From an uncultured Chloroflexia bacterium (GTDB lineage Bacteria > Chloroflexota > Anaerolineae > Anaerolineales > Villigracilaceae), in assembly GCA_963753985.1 (NCBI GenBank), contig CAVWED010000008.1:82545-146544 (forward strand): a DNA stretch of 64,000 nucleotides. The letters run 5' to 3'. The number at the start of each line of letters is the position of its first letter. Positions within the stretch are counted from its first letter, which is position 1. A model generated the notes under the pieces. The model did not search any database. It had not been told where the DNA came from and saw only the letters and a program-made list of their open reading frames with translations. Both the position numbers and the translations under genes were made by a program. Shown here in pieces: positions 911 through 32,117 of the stretch.

Positions 911-1168
911 ATGAACGTGACAGTTAATAATCGTTTCGCCGTTCTGCTTGCCGAAAAGCAGATAATAGAGCGCCGCAACATATCCTTACAGGAAGTTGCG
1001 GAGGCAACGGGCATCGCCCGCCAAACGCTTTATAAGTGGGAAAATAACAGCGTGAATCGTTTTGACACACCAATTATTAACGCCCTATGTCAATACTTCG
1101 GCGTCAAGCCAGGCGAATTATTCGAGTACATCGAAGACGAAAAGCCCGCGCCGAAAAAGAAAAAGTAA
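911..1168 (+). CDS. XRE/Cro-CI family helix-turn-helix transcriptional regulator
   Basis: MNVTVNNRFAVLLAEKQIIERRNISLQEVAEATGIARQTLYKWENN... is a classic HTH_3 motif. The internal ATG at 911 is preferred over the track start at 788. Confidence 0.8.
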   Translation: MNVTVNNRFAVLLAEKQIIERRNISLQEVAEATGIARQTLYKWENNSVNRFDTPIINALCQYFGVKPGELFEYIEDEKPAPKKKK

Positions 1169-1185
1169 CGCCTGCCCTACAATAC

Positions 1186-1217
1186 AAAACGCCTGTCATA
1201 AATTGACAGGCGTTTTT
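1186..1217. terminator. bidirectional intrinsic terminator
   Basis: AAAACGCCTGTCA-taaat-TGACAGGCGTTTTT. Perfect stem with an A-run before and a T-run after, between convergent genes. Confidence 0.8.
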
Positions 1218-1258
1218 GCGTTACTGCTATCCGTGCAAATTATTGTCGGAATGTTATG

Positions 1259-2032
1259 TTATTTTCCAACAAACACGATTGGACATGCTACAGTTAAGGC
1301 AAAATCGCTTTTACTTACTTGAATATAGAATTGTCCCGTTGAATTATCGTTAGTAATTATTGAGCTAAAGCCGCCGTCCACATCTCTTAACCTTGCCCAA
1401 TAACAAGAGTTTGTTCCGGCTTGGCCTTTATATGTGCCAGGCTGTATATCTATTCCTACTAAATACATTCCAGTGTCAATGTTTGTGGGCATATGTGCCG
1501 AAGGGGTAGGAAGCGAGGTAAGAAGCAATAGTTCACAATCAGTTTGAAGGGCATAATCAGTAGGTTTGACACGGATATAGTATTGACCATTGCTGTTATC
1601 GTTTGCCAATATTGAGTCAACGGTTCCTGATGTGTCTTTTAGTCTAGCCCAATAACAAGAATTGGTTCCAGCTTGGCCTTCATAAAGTCCTGACTTTATA
1701 TCCTTTCCAATAAGATAAGTTCCTGGTTCAACAAGATTTGGATTTGCCGTCGGTGGAATAGGTGTATTAGTTGGGGCATAAGTTGGCGACTCTACGGGAG
1801 TGGTCGCAGGGTGAGATAAAAGGGCGGTCTGCGTGACATTAGCCCACGCAGTAAGAACCGCAGAAGTTTGAATTGCATTGACATCAGCAGTTGGCTTGGG
1901 TGTTAGGGCGCTGATTGCATTTGAAATCATACCAACGACAATACAGACGACACATAGCCCAACAACGACTCCGCCAATGGTTAGCCAGTTGTTGTGTTTA
2001 ACGGGTGGAAGCGTTGATTGTTGTGTGCTCAT
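1259..2032 (-). CDS. membrane-anchored protein with two tandem ~65-aa repeats, unknown function
   Basis: N-terminal TM helix (WLTIGGVVVGLCVVCIVVGMI), PT-rich linker, then a duplicated module G-x-Y-x-G-x-DI-x-x-G-x-Y-x-GQAGTNSCYWARL-x-D...NDNS-x-GQ-x-YI. Confidence 0.6.
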   Translation of the reverse strand: MSTQQSTLPPVKHNNWLTIGGVVVGLCVVCIVVGMISNAISALTPKPTADVNAIQTSAVLTAWANVTQTALLSHPATTPVESPTYAPTNTPIPPTANPNLVEPGTYLIGKDIKSGLYEGQAGTNSCYWARLKDTSGTVDSILANDNSNGQYYIRVKPTDYALQTDCELLLLTSLPTPSAHMPTNIDTGMYLVGIDIQPGTYKGQAGTNSCYWARLRDVDGGFSSIITNDNSTGQFYIQVSKSDFALTVACPIVFVGK

Positions 2033-2211
2033 TGGAAGTCCCTTTTACCTTATGTAACTGCATATAATCCACTCAGTACGCCTTACTGTTTTAATATACT
2101 CCCTTCCTCCCTTTTTGTCATGTGTCCGTTATCATAAAAAAACAGGGTAAGCCCGTGCTTTGTTTGTGGGCGGATCCGTTAACTGCGCCGTTATCCTTGT
2201 GCGTGTACGCT

Positions 2212-2385
2212 TTAGTTCAACTTCTGCAATTCCTTTTCAAGTTCAGCGCGGGCAATATGCAACATGGACGCCAGGGCGTCCAGGCTTCGAGTCCTGTATT
2301 CAGCGGGAAGGATTGTAACATGCGTGTAATTCAATAACTTTTTCTTTTGCTTTTCCAGTTGTTCAATTCGTTGTTTGTTCGTCAT
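2212..2385 (-). CDS. 57-aa small protein, third member of the MTxKQRIxxLE family (below ORF-track cutoff)
   Basis: Own translation: MTNKQRIEQLEKQKKKLLNYTHVTILPAEYRTRSLDALASMLHIARAELEKELQKLN*. Its ATG overlaps the upstream stop as ATGA (2382-2385). Confidence 0.45.
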   Translation of the reverse strand: MTNKQRIEQLEKQKKKLLNYTHVTILPAEYRTRSLDALASMLHIARAELEKELQKLN

Positions 2386-2588
2386 TCTGAATCCTTTGGT
2401 AACTCGTCAATAAATCGGATACATATTTCCTTGTCGTTATCCGTTTTTATTTTGTCCCATTCGGCCAGGGACATTTCAACGCCGTCACAGGTTCCGAAGT
2501 CGTTCCCTTCAAAGTACACAAATAAGCGCGGCACACCGTGCGGCTTCTGTTCTTGCTCAAGTTTCGTTATTCGTTGTTTGGTTGTCAT
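2382..2588 (-). CDS. small protein, MTTKQRITKLE family
   Basis: Internal start MTTKQRITKLEQEQKPHGVPRLFVYFEGNDFG... preferred by analogy with its two paralogous neighbours. Confidence 0.5.
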   Translation of the reverse strand: MTTKQRITKLEQEQKPHGVPRLFVYFEGNDFGTCDGVEMSLAEWDKIKTDNDKEICIRFIDELPKDSE

Positions 2589-2598
2589 GTCGCATGTC

Positions 2599-2817
2599 CT
2601 ATATTTTATCCAGGTCAATACCGACTCGAATCGTTTTGACAGACAAACTCGCGCCTATATATTCGTCAACCTGTGCGCGTGTCATACCAATTAATTCAGG
2701 ACTGCCATATTCAACCAGTCCCGTTTTTTCGTTACATATCGTTACCCAAATTTTGCCGTTAGCGTGCTTCGCACCGTGCGCTTTTTCAAGTTGGCTAATT
2801 CGTTGTTTCGTTGTCAT
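2599..2817 (-). CDS. small protein, MTTKQRISQLE family
   Basis: MTTKQRISQLEKAHGAKHANGKIWVTICNE... The start overlaps the upstream stop as ATGA (2814-2817). Confidence 0.5.
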   Translation of the reverse strand: MTTKQRISQLEKAHGAKHANGKIWVTICNEKTGLVEYGSPELIGMTRAQVDEYIGASLSVKTIRVGIDLDKI

Positions 2818-3020
2818 CTTGAATCCTTTCCCGTGTCCGCCTTCACTTCAACAGACAGCGGTATCATCTCGCGCTTGCATTCAAGCAATGCCGCGACTTG
2901 TCGAATTGAATTTTCGTCCAGGTCAAACGTGACGCGAATCCCGCCGTCAACAAGAGTCTTAACCTGTGCCACGGTCGCAGGGAATTTAATAACGTTCACG
3001 GTTCTATTTTTTGTTGCCAT
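2814..3020 (-). CDS. small hypothetical protein
   Basis: 68-aa ORF in the same tightly packed minus-strand gene string. Overlaps the upstream gene by 17 nt. Confidence 0.4.
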   Translation of the reverse strand: MATKNRTVNVIKFPATVAQVKTLVDGGIRVTFDLDENSIRQVAALLECKREMIPLSVEVKADTGKDSR

Positions 3021-3426
3021 TGATAGCCGCCTCCAATGCGGTCAAACGTTCGTCAATGTTCAGCGTGTCAATAAACTTAAGCGACAGGTTCAACCAGTCA
3101 ACTGCCGCTTGTCTTCGTGTGCTTTCATGTTTCGCTTTGGTTATCAGTGTTTCGAGCGCGTCCAGGGCGAGAGACTGCCCCACTGAGAGTCGGCGTGTCA
3201 CCGTTTCAAGCATAGCACTTTCAGCAGATCGCAGAGCCGCACGGAATACCGGTTCAGTTAACCAGTTATAAAGCGTCCGTTCCCCTATCCCCGCCCGCTT
3301 CGCCGCCGCGCTTAGTGTCCTTTCGGACAACAGCGCCGCGATCGCTTTTTGTTGTTTGGTAGATATGCCATTATCGGAATTTTCCGGCATGTCTTCAGTT
3401 ACATATTCTTTTTGTTTTTCAGTCAT
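3004..3426 (-). CDS. helix-turn-helix DNA-binding protein (phage/plasmid type)
   Basis: ...LSERTLSAAAKRAGIGERTLYNWLTEPVFRAAL... is an HTH motif followed by a helical C-terminus. Confidence 0.55.
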   Translation of the reverse strand: MTEKQKEYVTEDMPENSDNGISTKQQKAIAALLSERTLSAAAKRAGIGERTLYNWLTEPVFRAALRSAESAMLETVTRRLSVGQSLALDALETLITKAKHESTRRQAAVDWLNLSLKFIDTLNIDERLTALEAAINGNKK

Positions 3427-3435
3427 TGGTTCACC

Positions 3436-4443
3436 TCAATTTTCTAAACATTCAACGCCCAGGATCGCCGTCAAGAAGTCAGCCAGCGCGCCGACTTGTA
3501 GAAGTTGATTCGCATCATGCTTGACGTTATTCTCTCTAACGCTTTGTATCTGTTTACCCCTGCCCTTTACGAGTCCGCTTAAGTCTTTGGCACGTTGTCC
3601 GCCTTTACTCCAAACATCATCCGCCCAAACAAAGACATGTTGATAACGGAGTGCGATTGCTTGCAGTATATCAACGCGTCCGCCGCTTTCACTTCCGAAT
3701 GATAAAGCGGTCACGCTGCAAGGATGACACTGCCAAATTGAAAGCGTATTGAATTCACCTTCAACAAGTAAGAGCGTGTCATGGGATTTGTTTGCATCTT
3801 GCAAGCCAAACAGCAAAGGCACACTGCCGGACATTGCCGAATAACGCAAGCCGTCCGGTTCATCATCCATAAACCGATACTTGACGGCTATTATCGTTTC
3901 GCCGGTCGTGTCCATGTCAAGCCACGGAATGACAAGCGCCGGACGTTGACGTTTTATCTTCGGATCGAACATCACCACATAACCCAACAGCCACGCGTAC
4001 CATGTCCCACGAGATAAGCCGCGCCGTGTGAGATATTCGTGGCCGGCTTTCCCGTCATCCGAGTCCAGTCTATCAGCCGCCGCGGTGATATGCTTCAATG
4101 CTTTTTCTTGCCATGCTGAATCCGGTAAAGTGATGGGCTTCGGCTTCGGTCGTGGTTGTGCTTTGGGCGTGATGGGTTTTGAAACATCACCGCCCAGGGT
4201 AGACAATGCGGTTTTGAAGTCGCAGTTATCCCGCTTCATCACGAAGTCAATCACGGTATGATATTTGCCGTCCCCACATTGCCGACAGTGCCAGCGGTCA
4301 CCGGTCGGCGTGTGTTTGACGGTTAGGCGGTCAGTCCCGCCGCAAAAGGGACACGCGCCGACATGATAAGCGCCCGCCGGTTTGAGTTCATATCCCAGCA
4401 AGGGGATGATTTCAACAGTCTGTTTGATATTCTGAATATCCAT
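3436..4443 (-). CDS. DNA primase (primase-helicase-type zinc ribbon + Toprim domain)
   Basis: ACPFCGGTDRLTV...WHCRQCG zinc ribbon. Toprim-like LLLVEGEFNTLSIWQ with later acidic motifs (VWADDV). Confidence 0.8.
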   Translation of the reverse strand: MDIQNIKQTVEIIPLLGYELKPAGAYHVGACPFCGGTDRLTVKHTPTGDRWHCRQCGDGKYHTVIDFVMKRDNCDFKTALSTLGGDVSKPITPKAQPRPKPKPITLPDSAWQEKALKHITAAADRLDSDDGKAGHEYLTRRGLSRGTWYAWLLGYVVMFDPKIKRQRPALVIPWLDMDTTGETIIAVKYRFMDDEPDGLRYSAMSGSVPLLFGLQDANKSHDTLLLVEGEFNTLSIWQCHPCSVTALSFGSESGGRVDILQAIALRYQHVFVWADDVWSKGGQRAKDLSGLVKGRGKQIQSVRENNVKHDANQLLQVGALADFLTAILGVECLEN

Positions 4444-4542
4444 GTTTCAAAGTCCTTTTGTTACGGTTACTTGTCCCAAATGTCCACGCTATGACATCGT
4501 AACAAGTGACGCCGGAAGACTGATTACAACAAAGGAAAAAGT

Positions 4543-4670
4543 ATCGGGACGCTTTTCTCTCACCATCCTACCGTCCCACCATCCCGATACCCCTTAAGGG
4601 GGTATATATCGGGACGGTTTTGGGCATCCCGATTTTCAAAACGGGAAGGTTCGGGAAGGTTGGGAAGGTT
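4543..4670. repeat. iteron/palindrome cluster, putative replication origin of the integrative element
   Basis: ATCGGGA(C/T) four times in alternating orientation (4543, 4581, 4608, 4626). Imperfect palindrome CCCGATACCCCTTAAGGGGGTATATATCGGG (4583-4613). GGGAAGGTT three times in tandem (4643-4670). Confidence 0.5.
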
Positions 4671-5730
4671 ACAAATTACGGCTTTCATTCTTGCCTTTTT
4701 CGGTCAATTGGTATGCGCCTTTTTGACCGTTCCCGTTTGGATTTTCGACAATTCCGGCTGTGATAAGGTTTGAAACATTATTTCGGATTGCCTTATCTTT
4801 CCCTATCGCAGGATCGCACCCGTCAATAATAGCGTTCATATCGCTAACGCCACTGTCCCGCAAAAAGCGAAGGATATAAATCTGCAAGTTGCTGTAATGC
4901 CGCTTCGCGCTTTGTTCGGATGAAGTCAGCCAAAAACTTTTTGGTTCAATCGTCATTCGATTCGCCATTGCCGCGAATTTGACGGGCGCTTCGTCTCTAA
5001 CTTTTGTTGTCTCAAAGTTAATCAGATCGTCTTCGGGTTCGCTTTCAACTTTGATGAGAGTATCTATCGCGCCTTTGATTGCAGTACTGCCGCGGTAATT
5101 ATCCTTGCCGGTTCCTTTGTTTGAATGATGAATGATGACTATCGCCGCTTGTGTATCTTCGGCAATACGCCGCAAGGTCAAGAAAACGGGCTGAACATCT
5201 TTCACCGCGTTTTCATCCTTGCCAGGCATCACATCCGCCAGGGCGTCAATGATGACAAGGCCCGCGCCCAAGCTATTGATAAGGTTTGTCAGTTCACCGA
5301 TCCAAAACGCATCCCCCAAATTGAAGCCAGCCACGGACACACACGAGACGGGCGTATTATCATCGGCGTCATGCCCGCGTAACACTTCGGCAATACGGCG
5401 CTTGATTCTTGCTTTGCCGCTTTCCTCGTCAATAATCAATGCGGGCTTCTGCATTGTTTGAAAGTCAAGCCATTGATTACCAGTCGCAACGCATACTGCC
5501 AAGTCAAGCAATGCCCACGTCTTTTTTGTTCCGCCATCACCATAAAAGATATTCACGCTTCCGGCTGAAATAAGTCTATCTACAACCCATTCGATAGCGG
5601 GTTGAGGTTGTAACGCATCGTAAGCCGTGATGATTTCATAACGCGGCTTTCCTTCCGGTATGACTATGGCTTTGTCGGCAAGTTCTTTACCGTTGATTTG
5701 CTTCAATAAGTTATCGGTCGCTATCGTCAT
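4669..5730 (-). CDS. RecA-fold AAA_25/RepA-like ATPase (putative replicative helicase/loader) with C-terminal winged-helix
   Basis: Walker A GDGGTKKT, Walker B LVIIDALAD, IVIIHHSNKG...YRGSTAIKGAIDT, typical of plasmid/phage RepA-DnaB-like ATPases. Confidence 0.75.
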   Translation of the reverse strand: MTIATDNLLKQINGKELADKAIVIPEGKPRYEIITAYDALQPQPAIEWVVDRLISAGSVNIFYGDGGTKKTWALLDLAVCVATGNQWLDFQTMQKPALIIDEESGKARIKRRIAEVLRGHDADDNTPVSCVSVAGFNLGDAFWIGELTNLINSLGAGLVIIDALADVMPGKDENAVKDVQPVFLTLRRIAEDTQAAIVIIHHSNKGTGKDNYRGSTAIKGAIDTLIKVESEPEDDLINFETTKVRDEAPVKFAAMANRMTIEPKSFWLTSSEQSAKRHYSNLQIYILRFLRDSGVSDMNAIIDGCDPAIGKDKAIRNNVSNLITAGIVENPNGNGQKGAYQLTEKGKNESRNL

Positions 5731-6136
5731 CGTTGCGCCCTCCCCATAGTGATAATTGCTTTGGCGTCTTCTTTCCGGTCGCTTTATAGGTTACGCCAAC
5801 CGCCGCCTTGCTTTGAATGTTCATCATTGAAACAAATTCCGAAAGCGGACAAGCTCTTTGTGATTCATATCCGCCGCGCTGAATAGGAAAAGATTTTTCT
5901 TGGAAGGTCTCAATGGGAATCGTGTACTTAACTTTCGTGTCGGTCACGGTCACAATGATTTCATCGCATCCGTGCGCTTTTGCTTCGTTGAGTAGATCGC
6001 AAGCTAAAGCAATCGCGGGGGGCGTGTGTAGGAGTCCGCCAGTGGTTCGGCGCACGTCCAGGATCGAGCCGCGTTTGACAGCAACGATTCGACCGTTAAC
6101 ACGTAATGGGTAAGTTGTAGTAGAATTGGAGTACAT
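5711..6136 (-). CDS. hypothetical protein
   Basis: 141-aa ORF coupled (20-nt overlap) to the ATPase gene. No recognisable motif. Confidence 0.45.
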   Translation of the reverse strand: MYSNSTTTYPLRVNGRIVAVKRGSILDVRRTTGGLLHTPPAIALACDLLNEAKAHGCDEIIVTVTDTKVKYTIPIETFQEKSFPIQRGGYESQRACPLSEFVSMMNIQSKAAVGVTYKATGKKTPKQLSLWGGRNDDDSDR

Positions 6137-6186
6137 TAGTTTACAGTCCTTTGCAAGCGTCCGCGTCCGGCGGGCGTTTGCTTTAA

Positions 6187-25240: not shown

Positions 25241-25642
25241 TTATTCTTCCTTCTTTTCGGATACAGGGTTCCCGTGAGCACGATCATGCATTTCCTTGAA
25301 CATCGGCGGAACACCATTTTCGTCCCAGCCGTGACGCCAAGCATGACGGCTCATGTGTCCGTCCCAGCCCCAGCGGGGGCCAAAGACGATGACGCTGACC
25401 AGACGAAAAACAAAGAACAGCACGAACAATCCGATCAGGAAACCGAAGATGCCAAAGAATGGATGCCAGAAGAAAGGCGCACCATAGTGAAAATATGGCA
25501 TGTTCCCGGGCTGTGCAGACTGCGGCAACTTCGTCGCGACGCCTTGTGCTACACCAGCGTTGAAGGCAAACAACGTGATGCCTGCGACTACGGCAATCAA
25601 CACCAACCCCGCCAAAATACGAGCAAAGATTTTTCCGTTCAT
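25241..25642 (-). CDS. small membrane protein with His/Trp-rich tail
   Basis: Two TM helices, then PRWGWDGHMSRHAWRHGWDENG. Confidence 0.6.
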   Translation of the reverse strand: MNGKIFARILAGLVLIAVVAGITLFAFNAGVAQGVATKLPQSAQPGNMPYFHYGAPFFWHPFFGIFGFLIGLFVLFFVFRLVSVIVFGPRWGWDGHMSRHAWRHGWDENGVPPMFKEMHDRAHGNPVSEKKEE

Positions 25643-25955: not shown

Positions 25956-27002
25956 ATGCAAACCGATTATGAAAATGAAGAAGACAGGCAACGGGCGGGC
26001 ATGCTATCATCACTCATTTGGGCGTCATGGGGCGCGTACTTGTACGTTATCATCATCGGTATATATTATGACAATCGGGTTTTAATTGCAGTAATGCTGG
26101 CTTGCAGTATTTTGCAAGGCATTCCATTTTGGTTGCTCCGACGCGGGTATTGGATCACCAGCAGTCTTGTCACCATCGTGAGTGTGCTTGGCACCGTAAC
26201 CCTTTTGGCAACAATGGGAGAAGGTATTCGTGATATCTCTGTTTTCATATTTCCCATTATCCTTATTTTTGCAGGTTTGACTTTGAACCGAATAATCTTT
26301 GGAATATGTGTTGCGCTGACGCTGACGGCGACCGGTTGGCTGATCTTTGGCGCAGCTAACGGCTGGTTCGTACCGGTTCTTTATGGAACGCCATGGATGG
26401 ATTTTCTAAGTGTGGCGGTCGTCTGGCTTGTTTCAGCATTCGCAATTGATTTGATGGCGATGAGCATGCGGAAGAATTTGAAATTGGCACGCCAGGAAAT
26501 AATGCAGCGCAAACAGGCGGAAGAACAACTTCGCTACCAAAGCATGCATGATACTCTCACCGGTATTTATAATCGCGGCTTTTTTGAAGAAGAACTGGCG
26601 CGGCTTGAGCATAGCCGCGAGTTTCCTGTCAGCATCATTATGGCTGATGTAGATCAATTAAAAGTTGTGAACGATACACGGGGACACGCCAAGGGCGACG
26701 AGCTCTTGCAGTATGCCGCGAATATTCTGCGCGCGGTATTTCGAGAAAGCGATGTGCTAGCGCGGATCGGCGGCGACGAATTTGCCATATTATTGCCAAA
26801 CACCAACGCGACCACAGGGGAACAAATATTGGTGCGAGTCAAAGAGCAGCAAACGAAACATAATATCGAACATCCCGATTTTGTTGTTCAATTATCGCTG
26901 GGCACTGCAACGGCAGAGAAAAACAATCTGACCGAGGCGTGCACACTTGCCGATCAGCGAATGTACGCGGATAAAACCGCTCACAAATCAAATGGAAATT
27001 AG
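25956..27002 (+). CDS. membrane-bound diguanylate cyclase (GGDEF)
   Basis: About five N-terminal TM helices, coiled linker, GGDEF domain (DTLTGIYNRGFF...RIGGDEFAILL). Confidence 0.9.
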   Translation: MQTDYENEEDRQRAGMLSSLIWASWGAYLYVIIIGIYYDNRVLIAVMLACSILQGIPFWLLRRGYWITSSLVTIVSVLGTVTLLATMGEGIRDISVFIFPIILIFAGLTLNRIIFGICVALTLTATGWLIFGAANGWFVPVLYGTPWMDFLSVAVVWLVSAFAIDLMAMSMRKNLKLARQEIMQRKQAEEQLRYQSMHDTLTGIYNRGFFEEELARLEHSREFPVSIIMADVDQLKVVNDTRGHAKGDELLQYAANILRAVFRESDVLARIGGDEFAILLPNTNATTGEQILVRVKEQQTKHNIEHPDFVVQLSLGTATAEKNNLTEACTLADQRMYADKTAHKSNGN

Positions 27003-27162
27003 TCCTTTTGTGAATTGGATGCAAAGCTGAGGAAGAAAGTCCTGCAAGACTGCGTCATCCAAGTCATTGTGGGACGGGACAAAAAGACAGCAACCCATCG
27101 ATGAGCTACTGTCCATGTTGAAAAGTATCAGGCGTGGAAGGTTGCGAGCCTTCGTCAAAATC

Positions 27163-28026
27163 CTATTTTTTGAATAAACTCCTGACCTGATTCAAAGCGC
27201 CCACAATACAACCGGGAGACGGGTTCGGCGTTGGAGCAGGAGCCGGAGGCTGGGGAGTTGGCGTCGTTTGTAAAACCTTGCCCGTAAGCGCCTGATAATC
27301 CGCGGCCAACTGAGCTAAGTTAACCCCCTGTTCAAATTCGGTGGTGCCCAACTGTTCGGGCCAGATAACCGCCCAGGCCTCTTCCACCTGTTTGCTCCAG
27401 AAATTATCAGTAAAGCCTGTCTCTTGAGCCCAAGTAACGAAACGCACATCATCTGCAGGATTCGTCGAATAACCGCCGCTGATGACGCTATGGCCGCCGT
27501 TGACTGGGGATCCGCTGACATAAGCCCATGGCTGGCCGCTGGCGAACTGATCCACATTGGCTTGCTGCACATTGATACCGAGCCACACACAACCAAAGAT
27601 GGCCAACGCCGCCTTGACTTCATCCAGGTTGGTAAAATCCACCTTTGCAAAGGCAACAACTTTGGTGCCATCCGGGCCGCCGGTGTTATGCAGGTATTCA
27701 AGGCACGTTTGAATGTCCATCCCCTGATCCTGCGTGGGAAAATTTGGATTCTGAGTCTTGTATAACGCGATGACTTGATTCATCGTTGGATAATATTCGG
27801 TTGTCAGTGTGGCAGTCACCAACCGCCGCATGTTCGCCCACGTCACCGCGACACAATCCCCATATTGATCGTTGCCCAGCATCTGCCAATTTTTCAACCG
27901 GCTAAGATAATCTTCCGAGGCCGGGTGCGCCGGAACAACTCCAGTTAAGAAACTGGCAAGTTCAAGGGCTGGAGCGCTCTTGGGCGGATTGCGACCAAAC
28001 TTTCCTTGCAACTGTCTATTTAACAT
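27163..28026 (-). CDS. putative papain-like cysteine peptidase carrying a PT linker and the shared GC...FKK C-terminal tail
   Basis: LGNDQYGDCVAVTWANM (candidate Cys) and NGGHSVISGGY (candidate His). Ends TPTPQPPAPAPTPNPSPGCIVGALNQVRSLFKK*. Confidence 0.6.
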   Translation of the reverse strand: MLNRQLQGKFGRNPPKSAPALELASFLTGVVPAHPASEDYLSRLKNWQMLGNDQYGDCVAVTWANMRRLVTATLTTEYYPTMNQVIALYKTQNPNFPTQDQGMDIQTCLEYLHNTGGPDGTKVVAFAKVDFTNLDEVKAALAIFGCVWLGINVQQANVDQFASGQPWAYVSGSPVNGGHSVISGGYSTNPADDVRFVTWAQETGFTDNFWSKQVEEAWAVIWPEQLGTTEFEQGVNLAQLAADYQALTGKVLQTTPTPQPPAPAPTPNPSPGCIVGALNQVRSLFKK

Positions 28027-28407
28027 GGGTCCTTCTCCAGTGCACAATTCGTAAATGTGAAATGCTTTTCTGATACAAGTTAATTATTGAACTTCATTAT
28101 GCCACTGATTATAAAAAAATACCATTGGTCATATAAACTTGAACATGGTTTTCTCAAGAACCGATTTTCAGGCCAAAGAATCCATCCGAAGTTCCTAGAT
28201 TTTGCGGCTTCAAGAGTAATTTATGCTATGGCAACATAAAGATGGTAATCCGTCAAGCTTTCTTGAGAAAACCATCTAAACTTGAAGGGGTGACTTAAGT
28301 TTTCATATGGATGAAACAGGACTTATCGAGAGCGGCTCATCAATGAGTTGTTGTCTATTTTGGAAAAGATCAAAAAGGGCAAGCTGTTTGCGAGCCTTTG
28401 TTAAATC

Positions 28408-29122
28408 CTATTTCTTAAATATACCCATGATTTGATTTATCGTACCTGAAAGACAGCCGGGTGAAGGGTTCGGCGTCGGAGTTGGTGTAGGCTGTGGAGT
28501 GGGAGTTGGCAGTGGTGTGGCTTGCCCGATCTTATTGCCGAGATACTTCGTGTTAATCCATAGACTACCGTCAAAACCTTTTGAAGTGTTAAATCCACCG
28601 CTAAAGTAAGGAACAAAGAATAATTGGCCGTTAGCTGATAAACGATTCCCCACCCGCCAGAGTGTAAGCTGCGCCTCCATAGCCGTTCTGATATAGAAAG
28701 TCCACTGTCAAAGCACTGTAATCATCCATCATCGGGATTCCGGCCAACTTGGCATATTCCCCTAAATAATCATCAACCGCAAAATGGTTACGCGGGTACA
28801 TGGCTGGACTGCCACTTGCCATCACTGCAATCGGCCATTTGACATGATAAGCCGAGTTGGGGCTTGATTGAACAATACCATACAGCGTGACACCTATCGT
28901 ATTACGTATCGAGGCCCATGACCACAACGCGCTATTGTCCACAGGCTGGCCGCCAATTTCACCATTTAGAGACAACAAGAATTTGACTGTCGGCTCATCT
29001 GGCGTTCCCAAATCCACCCAGGTTGTAGTCCCACCATTGAGCAAAGGAAACGAATTCGAATGTTCCTGGGACAGAAACGCCGGCTTCGGTCCAGGATAAG
29101 GCTTCGTAAAGATCAGGGATCA
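28408..29122 (-). pseudogene. tail-bearing paralogue copy 1 (two frameshifts)
   Basis: Collinear with copy 2. A 1-nt insertion near 29050 and an extra G near 28655 break the frame. Ends PTPNPSPGCLSGTINQIMGIFKK*. Confidence 0.7.
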
Positions 29123-29357
29123 TGGTTTCACCTCTTGATTATCATATTTTGCGGAACGGTAAGAGGAACTGAAATTGGAGCTACGTACGCACCGTTTGTT
29201 CTAGCCGATAAGCTGCTGTCTTTTTTAGAAAAGCATTAGGCAGGCCAAGTTACTTATGAACCTTCAATTAAATTCTATTTCCTAAATAGACTCATGATCT
29301 GGTTCATTGCACCTGAAATACAACCGGATGAAGAGTTCGGAGTTGGTGTGGGTTGTT

Positions 29358-29429
29358 GGGGTTGGGGTTGGGGTTGGGGTTGGGGTTGGGGTTGGGGTTG
29401 GGGTTGGGGTTGGGGTTGGGGTTGGGGTT
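29358..29429. repeat. (GGGGTT)x12 hexanucleotide microsatellite inside the linker-coding region
   Basis: Counted directly: 12 perfect units. Encodes (PT)n, (PQ)n or (PN)n depending on frame. Confidence 0.95.
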
Positions 29430-29483
29430 GGCACCGGCATTGGAGTTGGCACCGGCGTTGGAGTTGGCACCGGCGTTGGAGTT
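29430..29483. repeat. 18-nt tandem repeat x3 (GGCACCGGCRTTGGAGTT)
   Basis: Three consecutive units at 29430, 29448 and 29466. Absent from copy 1. Confidence 0.9.
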
Positions 29484-30381
29484 GGTGTAGGCTGTGGAGT
29501 GGGAGTTGGCAGTGGTGTGGCTTGCCCGATCTTATTGCCGAGATACTTCTTGCTAATCCATAGACTACCGTCAAAACCTTTTGAAGTGTTAAATCCACCG
29601 CTAAAGTAAGGAACAAAGAATAATTGGCCGTTAGCTGATAAACGATTCCCATCCGCCAGAGTGTAAACCGCGCCTCCATAGCCGTTCTGATATAGAAAGT
29701 CCACTGTCAAAGCACTGTAATCATCCATCATCGGGATTCCGGCCAACTTGGCATAATCCTCTGAATAATCATCTACCGCAATATAGTTACGCGGGTACAT
29801 GGCTGGACTGCCACTTGCTATCGCTGCAATCGGCCATTTGACATGATAAGCCGAGTTGGGGCTTGATTGAACAATACCATACAGCGTGACACCTATCGTA
29901 TTACGTATCGAGGCCCATGACCACAACGCGCTATTGTCCACAGGTTGACCGCCAATTTCACCATTTAGAGACAACAAGAATTTGACTGTCGGCTCATCTG
30001 GCGTTCCCAAATCCACCCAGGTTGTAGTCCCACCATTGAGAAACGGAAACACATCAAATGTTCCAGAGACAGAAACGCCGGCTTCGGTCCAGGATAAGGC
30101 TTCGTAAAGATCAGGGATCATGGTTTCACCTCTTGATTATCATATTTTGCGGAACGGTAAGAGGAACTGAAATTGGAGCTATGTACGCACGCTTGTTCCA
30201 TTTGGCACACTCGAATTATACGATATATTTCTGAATGCAGGCGACATCCGTTGCGTTTACTTGAACACTGCCCAAATATGAAGCCAGTAGGCTCCACGAA
30301 TTGGCCAAATTTCCGAGCATAGAAATCTTCCTCAAATCTTGACGTCACAGAATGCGTGTTCTATAATGGCGCAGTACTTAT

Positions 30382-32013
30382 TTACCGTCGTACTACGGGC
30401 ACAACAGGTGCTTGAGGTTGATGAGCAAAGGCTAATGCAAGCGGTGGCGGTGCAGTGCCCACTCGCTGCGAAGTGACTGCTCCTTTCAGTCGAAGCTGGA
30501 CAAGATAATCCAAGATCGGAATGGAATGTTGATGGCAGGTTACCAACACACTCGACAAGATCGCATGGGTCTCCGCTCCCGGCTTAGTGCGGTTACATCC
30601 ATTGGTTTTCCGAGTAATCACCGCCGGTCGGATCATGGTTCTGCGGTACGAAACCACCTTGCGTTCCACTTGGTTGTTGGTGGCATCCGAGCCGTCCATG
30701 TACAGGAAGCGCAACAGGTGAGGACGGTGCTTCCTCAAACGCTTGGCAAAGCGGGCATTGTCAGGATCGGTAAAGTGACGTCGATCGGCAATCAAAGCAT
30801 CAAGGCGAGTTTCCAAACTTCGGGCTCGATTGGCAAAGGTGAAAGGATCCAAGTGTGGTTTCTCGGCCTTCAAGTGCAAGGCGTCTTGCAACAAGGCGGT
30901 CATCTGCCGCGCAAACTCCAGCGCTCGACCTGTTTTGCTCTCACGCATGTCTTTCAAGTCTGTCAGCAAATGACCGATACATTTCTGTTTCAGCCAGTCT
31001 TTCAAACGCCGATCGTCATAAGCCAGGAAACCATCACTAGCCAAGATCCCTTTGAACTTCTCACCCAGAATATCGATCACGACGTCGCTCGAGCGGTTGG
31101 CGCGAATATCGTAAACCGTAATCTCGTGATCGGTAAAGACCCAACGCCCTGCGCCCTTCCAGGGGAGCCAGGCCGACAGCGTTCCAATTCTCTAACCCGT
31201 TTCATCTGCGTGCACCACACTGCATTGGCGAATCAACTCAATCAATCGTTCATATATCGGTCGGGCTGTGCGGGCCAGTTTTTGATCTGCGCGACACCAA
31301 CCACTACGACAAACCTGCAAGCCGAAACTATCGTTCAAGACTTCACTCACTGCCTGCACTGTGCTCTTCAGTGTGCCGTACGAGACACCCAAGCGATGCT
31401 TCAGATCAGTGGCCAAAGCCTTGGCGCGCGGGCCGACCACCACCGCTCCTGCAGTTCCGGTCGCCTCCGAGATCTGATCCGGATGCCACGATCGCACTCG
31501 TTTCTGGCAATGGCTGCAGTAGCCGCTGTAGGTCAGAAAACGCGTGACCACCGGCTGCACTTTTGGAAGATCGATCTCAAATTGCTCATGGCGATGCCTC
31601 TGGCGCAATTTGCCGCCGCAGTCCGGGCAACATGGCAATTCGGCTACCTTCGTCTCGCTCACTTCCTTCAGTCTCGGTTTGGCTCGCTATACAAAACGGC
31701 CTTTCCCAGCTTTGCGCCCCGGCCGCTTGGGAAAGTGGTTGGTACTTTGACCATGCTCTACCCAGTGCCCTCGAGCAAACGGTGCCGCTTGCCGCTTCCC
31801 GGCCCGCTTCAATTCTTCCACCTCAGATTGCAAAAGTTCCACCTGCTTTTGCAGTCTCTCGTTCTGTTTTCGCAACTGCTCATTCTCCCCTTGCAGCCTC
31901 TCATTGCTCGCCAACACCTGCCCCAGTTGTTGTTCCAGTTTTGTGATCCGTTGTTCGTTGGCATCCGACAACGTTTGTTTATTACTTCTTTGAACCATGC
32001 GACCAGTGTACAA
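30382..32013 (-). pseudogene. IS66-family transposase interrupted by two in-frame TAG codons
   Basis: Leucine-zipper N-terminus, zinc-finger CPDCGG...CSHCQ, HADETG*R, DDE region ...NNQVERK...RKTNGCNRTKPGAE. TAG at 31687-31689 and 31192-31194, all pieces in one frame. Confidence 0.8.
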
Positions 32014-32117
32014 TTCTCAGCCTATGTTTGACAAGGGTCGTTTCACCTCTTGTTTCGAGAATTTCGACCCTTTACAAAATCGTCTTCCACGACGGTAAAC
32101 ATGTACATGGCGCAACT

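Follow-up and report, generated by a model that had tools for sequence, protein, structure and literature searches.

The window analyzed here is a stretch of 64,000 nucleotides (nt) from an uncultured Chloroflexota bacterium of the order Anaerolineales (assembly GCA_963753985.1, contig CAVWED010000008.1, positions 82,545 to 146,544), in which three neighboring genes on the minus strand, here called genes 1, 2 and 3, are associated with a short, cysteine-containing C-terminal sequence that we refer to as the tail. An initial annotation, made from the letters of the DNA, had drawn attention to these tails and proposed that they constitute a modular C-terminal tag resembling processed sorting signals or encapsulin cargo-loading peptides. 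The three tail-coding stretches occupy positions 27163-27213 (PSPGCIVGALNQVRSLFKK, then the stop), 28408-28458 (PSPGCLSGTINQIMGIFKK, then the stop) and 29275-29325, and each is preceded by Pro/Thr-rich sequence, as had been described; a degenerate DNA pattern for the tail matches the window three times, against 0.00 expected from 100 shuffles. We find that the tail is a lineage-restricted modular C-terminal unit composed of a flexible Pro-rich linker, a Gly-Cys dipeptide and a cationic amphipathic helix.

Gene 1 (27163..28026) is an intact coding sequence of 287 residues, and its product is 100% identical to WCA79_17475 from an Anaerolineales metagenome-assembled genome (MAG). It combines a papain-fold catalytic domain (residues 1-250; 27277..28026), a Pro/Thr/Ala-rich linker TTPTPQPPAPAPTPNPSP (27214..27267) and a PGC tail GCIVGALNQVRSLFKK (27166..27213) that is recovered both as a DNA pattern match and as a helix in the AlphaFold2 (AF2) model; the open reading frame (ORF) ends in TPNPSPGCIVGALNQVRSLFKK before its stop codon. 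In the window only this gene carries domain and tail in one frame. The initial annotation had all three genes ending in the tail, which holds for gene 1, but it overlooked that genes 2 and 3 are frameshifted, and their products had been stitched together from different reading frames. Gene 2 (28408..29123, ATG at 29123), a paralogue with a domain of its own that matches no known family, is broken into three ORF pieces by two 1-nt insertions, at ~29056 and in the GGGG run 28648-28651, as called relative to intact orthologues and to gene 3; its tail (GCLSGTINQIMGIFKK, 28411..28458) is confined to the last piece, of 90 residues (28408-28680). Gene 3 (29275..30121) encodes a paralogue of the same domain with a long Pro/Thr (PT) linker. 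Its main ORF spans 29282-30121, and the 16-residue tail (29278..29325) lies in an ORF of a different frame (29275-29679), because of one extra A at ~29354, directly 3' of a perfect (CCAACC)x12.8 microsatellite (29355..29431; 100% matches) that codes for the (PT)n of the linker. Two repeats with an 18-nt period (29421-29485 and 29477-29520) overlap or adjoin this microsatellite. Programmed frameshifting or phase variation of gene 3 was considered and rejected: the 6-nt repeat unit preserves the frame, the shift comes from a single A beside the repeat, and the orthologue in a related species-representative MAG (L004; loci outside the window carry L numbers and individual proteins P numbers) is read in one frame.

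In that MAG all three genes are intact with their tails in frame, gene 3 lying at 141-968 and gene 2 at 1063-1770. Gene 2 is likewise intact in L002 (9023-9748), where gene 3 has lost its stop codon, and the same cluster is held by the JGI contigs L008-L011, with an intact gene 2 in L008-L010. The PT linker varies widely in length among orthologues, the gene 2/3 proteins ranging from 235 to 281 residues, and it therefore evolves by repeat expansion and contraction. The close relatives of the window locus are long-read assemblies, which are indel-prone; we nevertheless consider real decay of the gene 2/3 region more likely than assembly error, since long ORFs elsewhere in the window are intact and an adjacent IS66 element is also broken.

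Comparison of the tails revealed that the Gly-Cys is invariant, usually as Pro-Gly-Cys, and that it is followed by a helix of ~14 residues ending in F-[KR]-K or F-K-G. The consensus is PGC-[ILV]-x-G-x-hydrophobic-[NQ]-[QK]-hydrophobic-x-x-hydrophobic-F-K-K. The three tails in the window had been called near-identical, but they are mutually only 53-60% identical. Counted from the cysteine, hydrophobic residues fall at positions 2, 5, 6, 9, 12 and 13 of 14 and the remaining positions are polar or basic, giving hydrophobic moments of 0.42-0.60 and net charges of +1 to +4; in gene 1 the hydrophobic face consists of I, A, L, V, L and F with a net charge of +3. Tails of type A have a basic C-terminal pair (K/R), and the divergent QQ-type tails retain the same hydrophobic pattern. 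The AF2 model of gene 1 places an isolated helix at residues 274-284 behind a low-confidence linker (predicted local distance difference test score, pLDDT, 55-70 over residues 251-287 and 55-63 in the tail). No tail contains a transmembrane (TM) segment, the maxima of 19-residue Kyte-Doolittle windows being 0.28-0.36 against a TM threshold of 1.6; the initial annotation, too, had judged the tail too short to span a membrane. With a segregated hydrophobic face, flanking basic residues and a flexible linker, the tail has the predicted design of an amphipathic membrane-targeting sequence, to judge from sequence and model.

None of the three genes codes for a signal peptide, as the initial annotation had stated. 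These calls rest on upstream stops and starts together with N-terminal hydropathy, for which the 19-residue Kyte-Doolittle maxima are <= 0.96. Gene 3 has an in-frame stop 18 nt before its ATG and a ribosome-binding site AAGAGGTG; in the frame of gene 1 the listed ORF opens with the TTG at 28047, so that this TTG has no start codon before it. The suggested likeness to processed sorting signals does not hold up, in that the tails have neither a TM segment nor a basic cluster following one, and the proteins lack the N-terminal signal peptide. Tested against PEP-CTERM, the tails show no PEP motif, no TM helix and no NCBIfam match at E <= 10; tested against MYXO-CTERM, the Gly-Cys is present, yet a 14-residue amphipathic helix and not a TM segment follows it, and again no NCBIfam model matches. 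Scans of the gene 1 and gene 2/3 proteins against Pfam and NCBIfam, CTERM models included, returned nothing relevant, nor did the bare tail match NCBIfam at E <= 10; no CTERM model named there covers the tail. Sortase, exosortase, archaeosortase and rhombosortase genes are absent among the Pfam-annotated neighbors at ~22.3-35.2 kb of the window and among the called genes of L001, L002, L016 and L019, and no neighbor is conserved between loci. Of the two readings, we favor an anchor that binds the membrane over a sorting signal that is processed.

The domain preceding the gene 1 tail had been read as papain-like, and the structural evidence bears this out. The AF2 model (pLDDT 87.2; predicted template modeling score 0.83) finds xylellain (PDB: 3OIS) as its best Foldseek match (E = 1e-10), followed by cathepsins (probability 1.00 for both); it superimposes on xylellain with a TM-score of 0.60-0.64 at ~15% sequence identity. 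A cysteine at the start of helix 58-74 (Cys58, codon 27853-27855) and a histidine (His179, codon 27490-27492) are invariant in 83 gene 1 homologues. By its modeled fold and this residue pair the domain is a papain-like (clan CA) cysteine peptidase with predicted catalytic activity, even though the protein has no match in Pfam (family C1 included) or NCBIfam. The gene 2/3 domain belongs to a tiny family of 15 matches for which AF2 gives no confident fold (pLDDT 36). It has no match in PHROGs or in a tblastn search of phages, its best PDB profile match reaches only E = 0.085, and Pfam scans of distant family members are empty. We concur with the earlier view that the N-terminal domains of the two families are unrelated, because BLASTP detects no resemblance between the domain of gene 1 and that of gene 3, and hhalign of gene 1 against gene 2/3 aligns the linker and tail alone (probability 95.5%, E = 1.4e-8).

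The sharing of a tail by unrelated domains in one cluster raises the question of how much of it reflects copying of DNA. The 3' non-coding flanks of gene 1 (27073..27162, which includes a terminator-like hairpin and T-run at 27085..27114), gene 2 (28318..28407) and gene 3 (29185..29274) resemble one another: over the first 54 nt after the stop codons the three copies share 57-67% identity, the resemblance being weaker farther out, and local alignments over the 90-nt flanks give z-scores of 9-15 overall (9-13 for the gene 1 flank, 11-15 for that of gene 2 and 9-13 for that of gene 3), with 0/300 shuffles reaching the observed score. Because the similarity extends past the stop codons, the copying within the cluster took place at the DNA level and included the linker, the tail and about 70 nt of 3' flank. 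Most likely the tail passed from the gene 1 to the gene 2/3 family by an old duplication or recombination of the 3' end, the direction being indicated by the wide occurrence of the tail in the gene 1 family and by distant gene 2/3 members (P0130-P0132, ~50% identity) that terminate before any linker. The initial annotation had regarded local copying with a conserved flank as grounds for dismissing the tag, and a 3' DNA module was indeed copied within the locus, but the copy is old and constrained, and the tail also occurs elsewhere. Between the two families the tail shows a proportion of synonymous differences (pS) of 0.64 and of nonsynonymous differences (pN) of 0.17, hence a pN/pS of 0.26; the ratio is 0.38 among gene 1 orthologues and 0.58 among gene 2/3 copies. 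Synonymous differences dominate, as had been observed, and it is the peptide that is conserved. Recent gene conversion was rejected in view of the between-family pS and of the greater resemblance among orthologous than among paralogous tails.

These data also bear on the notion that the tail is a functionless, hitch-hiking 3' segment that owes its spread to duplication or gene conversion at this locus and is today in decay. The co-conserved flanks, the frameshifts in genes 2 and 3 of the window, the lost stop codon of gene 3 in L002 and the restriction of the strict tail pattern to this gene cluster in two large sequence collections would all fit such a view. However, the age and constraint of the copy and the closer relationship of orthologous tails speak against it, as does the retention of the tail next to unrelated flanks. 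Gene 1 homologues down to ~67-76% identity in other contexts (L001 and L005) keep the tail with unrelated 3' flanks, and so do the caspase-like and aerolysin-like genes described below. We consider this reading highly improbable, and with the profile matches, unrelated flanks and pN/pS values contradicting it, largely refuted.

To what extent the tail occurs beyond the locus depends on the strictness of the search. The strict DNA pattern is rare, being found in 3 of ~185,000 species genomes (GTDB representatives), all of them Chloroflexota MAGs, and in four JGI contigs, in both sets on the two window families only; there are 0 matches in viral contigs, and a further metagenome match (L007) is due to chance, lying in a different frame from an annotated membrane-protein ORF. 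A protein search with three joined copies of the tail yielded no match at E <= 10, and PADLOC found nothing. When 1.84 billion representative proteins were searched with a profile of the linker and tail, 11 matches at E <= 0.001 were recovered. They add two unrelated families with the design P-G-C-[ILV]-x-G-x-hydrophobic-x-Q-hydrophobic-x-x-hydrophobic-F-[KG]-[KG] after a Pro-rich linker at their very C-terminus. Two of the 11 are pieces of proteins from the window families, another two, both eukaryotic repeat proteins, were discarded, and seven are bacterial proteins or fragments. All seven show a Pro-rich linker followed by SPGC-[ILV]-x-[GS]-x-x-[QK]-[QA]-x-x-x-[LIF]-F, with 1-4 residues after the final phenylalanine, usually starting with K or N (K, KG, NG, GG, KNG, KGTE). 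Five of the seven (P0138, P0141, P0142, P0145 and P0146) are, or read as, caspase-like C14 peptidases; the Pfam C14 domain is matched by P0141, P0146 and the upstream piece of the P0145 gene, while P0138 and P0142 were assigned from their sequence. These proteins come from metagenomic contigs without an assigned lineage. Another is a protein of 494 residues (P0147/P0143) with two jacalin domains and an aerolysin/ETX_MTX2 domain, a natterin-like architecture, and a PGC tail; its gene lies at 1020-2504 (+) of L019 (= P0147) and also at 4-1089 of L016. The contig belongs to Anaerolineales, judging by the ATP synthase subunit A that it encodes, which falls into one cluster (>=90% identity) with a named MAG protein. 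The remaining match, P0139, is a 75-residue fragment with the tail whose N-terminal domain is not identified.

As with genes 1-3, a signal peptide is missing from the toxin and from the one caspase-like gene model that is complete. In P0147 the frame is closed by a stop codon 12 nt before the start, and the reconstructed caspase-like gene of L017 starts with MKKAVCVGINDYPG. Since the profile recovers the tail on these proteins and their 3' flanks are unlike those in the window, the tail is a genuine module present on at least four unrelated N-terminal domains; together with the purifying selection on the peptide, this supports the proposal of a modular C-terminal tag. Its carriers with an assigned lineage are so far confined to Anaerolineales/Chloroflexota and certain phage relatives of gene 1, and no further tail-bearing family was found in the ~890 kb of sequence fetched. 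The discarded matches are a marine eukaryote transcript (P0140) and a moth protein (P0144), both judged unrelated; P0140 (359 residues) contains seven repeats with 'QQV(A/V)GAVNDI(R/S)GMFHH', whose likeness to the tail core GA-x-N-x-I-x-x-x-F is probably due to chance. As to the surroundings of these genes, an MFS transporter gene lies 58 nt downstream of the toxin in L019 and directly downstream of it in L016 and L020. Directly downstream of the truncated tail-bearing caspase-like gene of L018 (P0141), a 93-residue ORF (670-951, +) codes for three TM segments, with a weak match to Sigma_M_inh (E = 0.0095) as its sole family assignment.

The gene 1 family is large, with 1,203 matches in the homologue search, and its context points to phages, a link that the initial annotation had missed. 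The domain matches phrog_19005 (E = 1.4e-25), described as of 'unknown function', and the family occurs on at least 105 IMG/VR viral contigs at 50-69% identity to the copy in the window; loci of the family include L003, L012, L014 and L022-L101, and many of the viral ones are Pro/Ala-rich. Examination of gene neighborhoods revealed a holin (phrog_9752) immediately downstream of the gene 1 homologue in L012 (E = 3.5e-14) and L057 (E = 3.4e-12). In L043 a GH25 muramidase and a Holin_LLH-like gene lie directly downstream and a gene without a family match, read as tail-fibre-like, lies upstream, and in phage MW202816 an N-acetylmuramoyl-L-alanine amidase gene is directly upstream. Scans for TM segments in the genes downstream of viral homologues are noisy in high-GC contigs, and only cases confirmed by PHROGs or Pfam were used. 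In phages and prophages, members of the gene 1 family are thus lysis-cassette enzymes, a statement that applies to the phage homologues; the copy in the window is chromosomal and lies outside any prophage. Their substrate may be peptidoglycan, but a proteinaceous layer of the envelope would be just as plausible.

The C-terminal part of these homologues is informative as well. The region after the Pro-rich linker is highly variable and usually forms an amphipathic helix or mini-helical module (median best-window moment 0.61 over 113 tails). Several phage members carry PGC followed by a short, Lys-rich amphipathic helix of other sequence (L037 PPPGCIQWLIDKIKKWLESL, L043 NPGCSSLFAFLMKNGMKK and L052 NNPGCLDSLLSKTFKL), and PGC with other amphipathic Lys-rich tails is also present in L044 and L059. 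Two metagenomic homologues have true TM segments there. In P0054 (301 residues; L104 1827-2732) a 22-residue TM segment with a Kyte-Doolittle value of 2.57 comes straight after PGC and is followed by R, and in P0098 (321 residues) two TM segments (Kyte-Doolittle 2.25) follow AGC; neither protein has a signal peptide, and from their sequence both look like tail-anchored enzymes or endolysin-holin fusions, the latter having been discussed for another family (PMC9527704). The position after the linker is a hot spot for swaps of C-terminal modules, which include AWLxAKGL helices, amphipathic 15-20-mers, TM segments or no module at all. A Gly-Cys occurs within the last 60 residues of 52 of the 120 gene 1 homologues, and in the examples inspected it sits at the junction of linker and tail even where the tails differ. 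In L005, TIR_2, NB-ARC/STAND NTPase and TPR gene pieces, apparently frameshifted (2027-4852, +), are convergent with the tail-bearing gene 1 homologue (5309-6145, -); this setting may be a defense island or a coincidence.

A conserved Gly-Cys at a linker junction could also be understood if the tail were a removable pro-peptide or auto-inhibitor, cut near the Pro-Gly-Cys or caging Cys58 through a disulfide with its own cysteine, so that dangerous effectors would be held inactive until triggered, with the papain-like or a caspase-like protease as the cutter. Cleaving off a short C-terminal peptide activates both aerolysin-family toxins and bacterial gasdermins, and P1 Lyz-type endolysins have a regulatory cysteine beside a segment that is released from the membrane. 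Both precedents favor such a role, as do the retention of Gly-Cys where tails differ and the fact that two of the four tail-bearing families are cysteine proteases. Yet AF2 does not dock the tail confidently on the domain (tail pLDDT 55-63), and an identical tail design occurs on domains that are not proteases. On balance we hold this explanation to be improbable.

Instead, we propose, with somewhat less than even confidence, that the tail is an autonomous cationic amphipathic helix for membrane association. Several lines of evidence argue for it: the amphipathic geometry of the tail in proteins that have neither a TM segment nor a signal peptide; the homologues P0054 and P0098, in which genuine TM segments take the place of the helix; the occurrence of the gene 1 family in lysis cassettes, some of its phage members carrying amphipathic Lys-rich tails after PGC; and the prevalence of amphipathic tails across that family, together with purifying selection on the peptide. 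Across the window, L001, L005, L019 and the short contigs L017 and L018, no neighbor or processing enzyme is conserved, which fits an autonomous element. Endolysins with C-terminal amphipathic helices that act on membranes have been reported (PMC11929351). The tail would then fold as an in-plane amphipathic helix and bind the cytoplasmic membrane by itself, requiring no processing enzyme, with the conserved cysteine at the membrane interface. The long linker would tether folded lytic or cytotoxic effectors lacking a signal peptide to the membrane, placing them near holin-type lesions or the target bilayer, and Anaerolineales would have reused the tail design of a phage lysis-cassette peptidase on other lytic and cytotoxic effectors. 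The observations concern the shape and conservation of the tail, from which actual membrane binding and its purpose are inferred.

Certain features weigh against an anchor. The hydrophobic moment of single tails beats that of their own shuffles only modestly (p = 0.01-0.08), and the conservation of G at +3, N/Q at +6, Q/K at +7 and the invariant Gly-Cys exceeds what lipid binding needs, so that a protein partner or a modification could be involved. Helices of this amphipathic kind serve in protein docking as well. The domain types found with the tail (a lectin-bearing toxin, papain- and caspase-like proteases) and the PT linkers are typical of extracellular proteins, which favors an export signal. 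Moreover, membrane binding is a prediction from sequence and model.

The point about extracellular domain types leads to the possibility that the tail is an export or targeting signal, by which a dedicated pathway (holin-dependent in the manner of type 10 secretion, or driven by an ATPase) exports folded proteins, with the gene 2/3 proteins, the caspase-like proteases and the jacalin-aerolysin toxin as cargo. Beyond the domain types and PT linkers, this would account for a tail on at least four unrelated N-terminal domains whose readable N-termini lack signal peptides. The gene 1 family would also derive from lysis cassettes, as do components of type 10 secretion (PMC9527704, PMC13284979), and the principle by which holin-dependent export recognizes its cargo is still unidentified (PMC9527704). 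Candidate membrane partners are a conserved ORF with two TM segments (2-TM ORF) and a charged C-terminus, directly downstream of gene 1 in L002, L004 and L006, and the small ORF with three TM segments after the tail-bearing caspase fragment in L018. However, searches of Pfam and PHROGs do not link the 2-TM ORF to any holin, and it is absent beside gene 1 in L001 and L005 and beside the toxin in L019. Nor do the loci share an exporter gene nearby, and very few tail-bearing proteins were found. We therefore regard an export signal as unlikely. Its more specific form, that the PGC tail is the first recognizable cargo tag for export independent of Sec and Tat in Chloroflexota, with holin-type or other machinery recognizing the cysteine-capped helix and releasing the papain peptidase, the caspase-like proteases, the natterin-like pore former and the gene 2/3 domain in folded form, and the conserved cysteine perhaps being modified or used in a covalent intermediate, appears more doubtful still. 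An export tag of either form, if real, would bear on how holin-dependent secretion recognizes cargo without signal peptides.

The 2-TM ORF merits a brief description. In the window it codes for 133 residues at 25241-25642 (-), and its counterparts lie at 11070-11486 in L002, 3005-3406 in L004 and 2551-2949 in L006, where it follows gene 1 on the same strand at a distance of ~200 nt. Its C-terminus is rich in His, Trp and charged residues (GPRWGWDGHMSRHAWRHGW ... MFKEMHDRAHG). A role as holin is unsupported by the Pfam and PHROG family searches, which gave no match of any kind; the ORF could be holin-like, metal-related or merely syntenic. In the window a membrane GGDEF diguanylate cyclase gene (25956-27002, +) stands between gene 1 and this ORF on the opposite strand. 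It represents a lineage-specific insertion or rearrangement, since it is not at that position in L002, L004 or L006. The remaining neighbors of gene 1 are a ferredoxin, a two-component system and IS66 debris, the latter directly upstream of genes 2 and 3, where a decayed IS66 transposase is spread over three ORFs (30382-32013, -): DDE_Tnp_IS66 at 30382-31080, zf-IS66 at 31192-31662 and a coiled-coil N-terminal part at 31687-32013. A 501-residue ORF antisense to this element (30526-32031, +) is probably spurious.

The conserved polar residues of the tail bring up a further alternative, namely a docking or oligomerization helix that bundles the peptidase with the gene 2/3 proteins, or loads a compartment or particle in the manner of encapsulin cargo, possibly with an interchain disulfide through the cysteine. 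A heptad-like hydrophobic pattern, conserved specific polar residues and cysteine, and the adjacency of tail-bearing genes in one cluster are compatible with it, and a short C-terminal peptide after a flexible linker matches the layout of cargo-loading peptides, a likeness also raised in the initial annotation. Encapsulin cargo motifs have a GSL-type (LxxGSL-like) core in the last 10-20 residues, but the tail consensus has no GSL core. Nor is there an encapsulin shell or other HK97-fold gene among the Pfam-annotated neighbors of the window (~22.3-35.2 kb) or the called genes near the other loci. Tail-bearing gene 1 homologues stand alone in L001, L005 and L006, homologues have TM segments at the same position, and proteases and a pore former would be atypical cargo. 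For these reasons docking or encapsulation seems to us distinctly unlikely.

Returning to the membrane anchor, the tail would, if this reading is correct, represent a compact, transplantable module, from which one could learn how phages place their lysis enzymes at the membrane and how bacteria have reused the module on caspase-like proteases and an aerolysin-type toxin. Irrespective of this, the analysis flags a large papain-fold family in phage lysis cassettes (over 1,200 homologues), for which the query finds no counterpart in Pfam or NCBIfam, and a Gly-Cys junction motif that recurs in that family.

Among known systems, MinD/FtsA-type membrane-targeting sequences are also C-terminal amphipathic helices of 10-15 residues that follow flexible linkers. 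They act independently of partners and can be transplanted between proteins, as we propose for the tail. However, they belong to cell-division ATPases, are not known to have a conserved cysteine and show no sequence similarity to the tail; our comparison of the tail with such membrane-targeting sequences is illustrative only. The MYXO-, PEP-, GlyGly- and PGF-CTERM signals are likewise C-terminal, follow low-complexity linkers and occur on diverse N-terminal domains, and MYXO-CTERM shares the Gly-Cys, but these signals have a full TM helix and basic cluster and depend on an N-terminal signal peptide, all missing from the proteins here, and they co-occur with a dedicated sorting enzyme, for which the annotated neighbors include no gene. 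P0054, with its PGC, TM segment and R, is superficially CTERM-like but has no signal peptide. Encapsulin cargo-loading peptides resemble the tail as short conserved peptides at the C-terminus, placed after a flexible linker on unrelated cargo; they differ in their GSL-type core, in their accompanying shell gene, which has no counterpart among the annotated neighbors here, and in their typical cargo, to which proteases and a pore former do not conform. Xylellain and the C1 peptidases share with the gene 1 domain the fold and the Cys/His pair, and the gene 1 family differs from them by its association with phages. Type 10 secretion (PMC9527704, PMC10109510, PMC13284979) has in common with the tail-bearing proteins the chromosomal components derived from lysis cassettes and the toxins or hydrolases without signal peptide, but no cargo tag is known for it and the window has no established holin. 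The nearest parallel is offered by phage endolysins with C-terminal cationic amphipathic helices (PMC11929351, PMC10053066), which are likewise lysis-cassette enzymes without a signal peptide and whose helix interacts with membranes in published cases (PMC11929351). Those endolysins are mostly of the lysozyme type, come from phages of Gram-negative bacteria and have the helix within or abutting the globular domain, whereas the tail described here follows a papain-fold domain by way of a Pro-rich linker of 18-70 residues, starts with an invariant Gly-Cys and is reused on unrelated domains. Relative to both endolysin helices and membrane-targeting sequences, the tail stands apart by the Gly-Cys cap, the long Pro-rich tether and the reuse on at least four unrelated effector domains.

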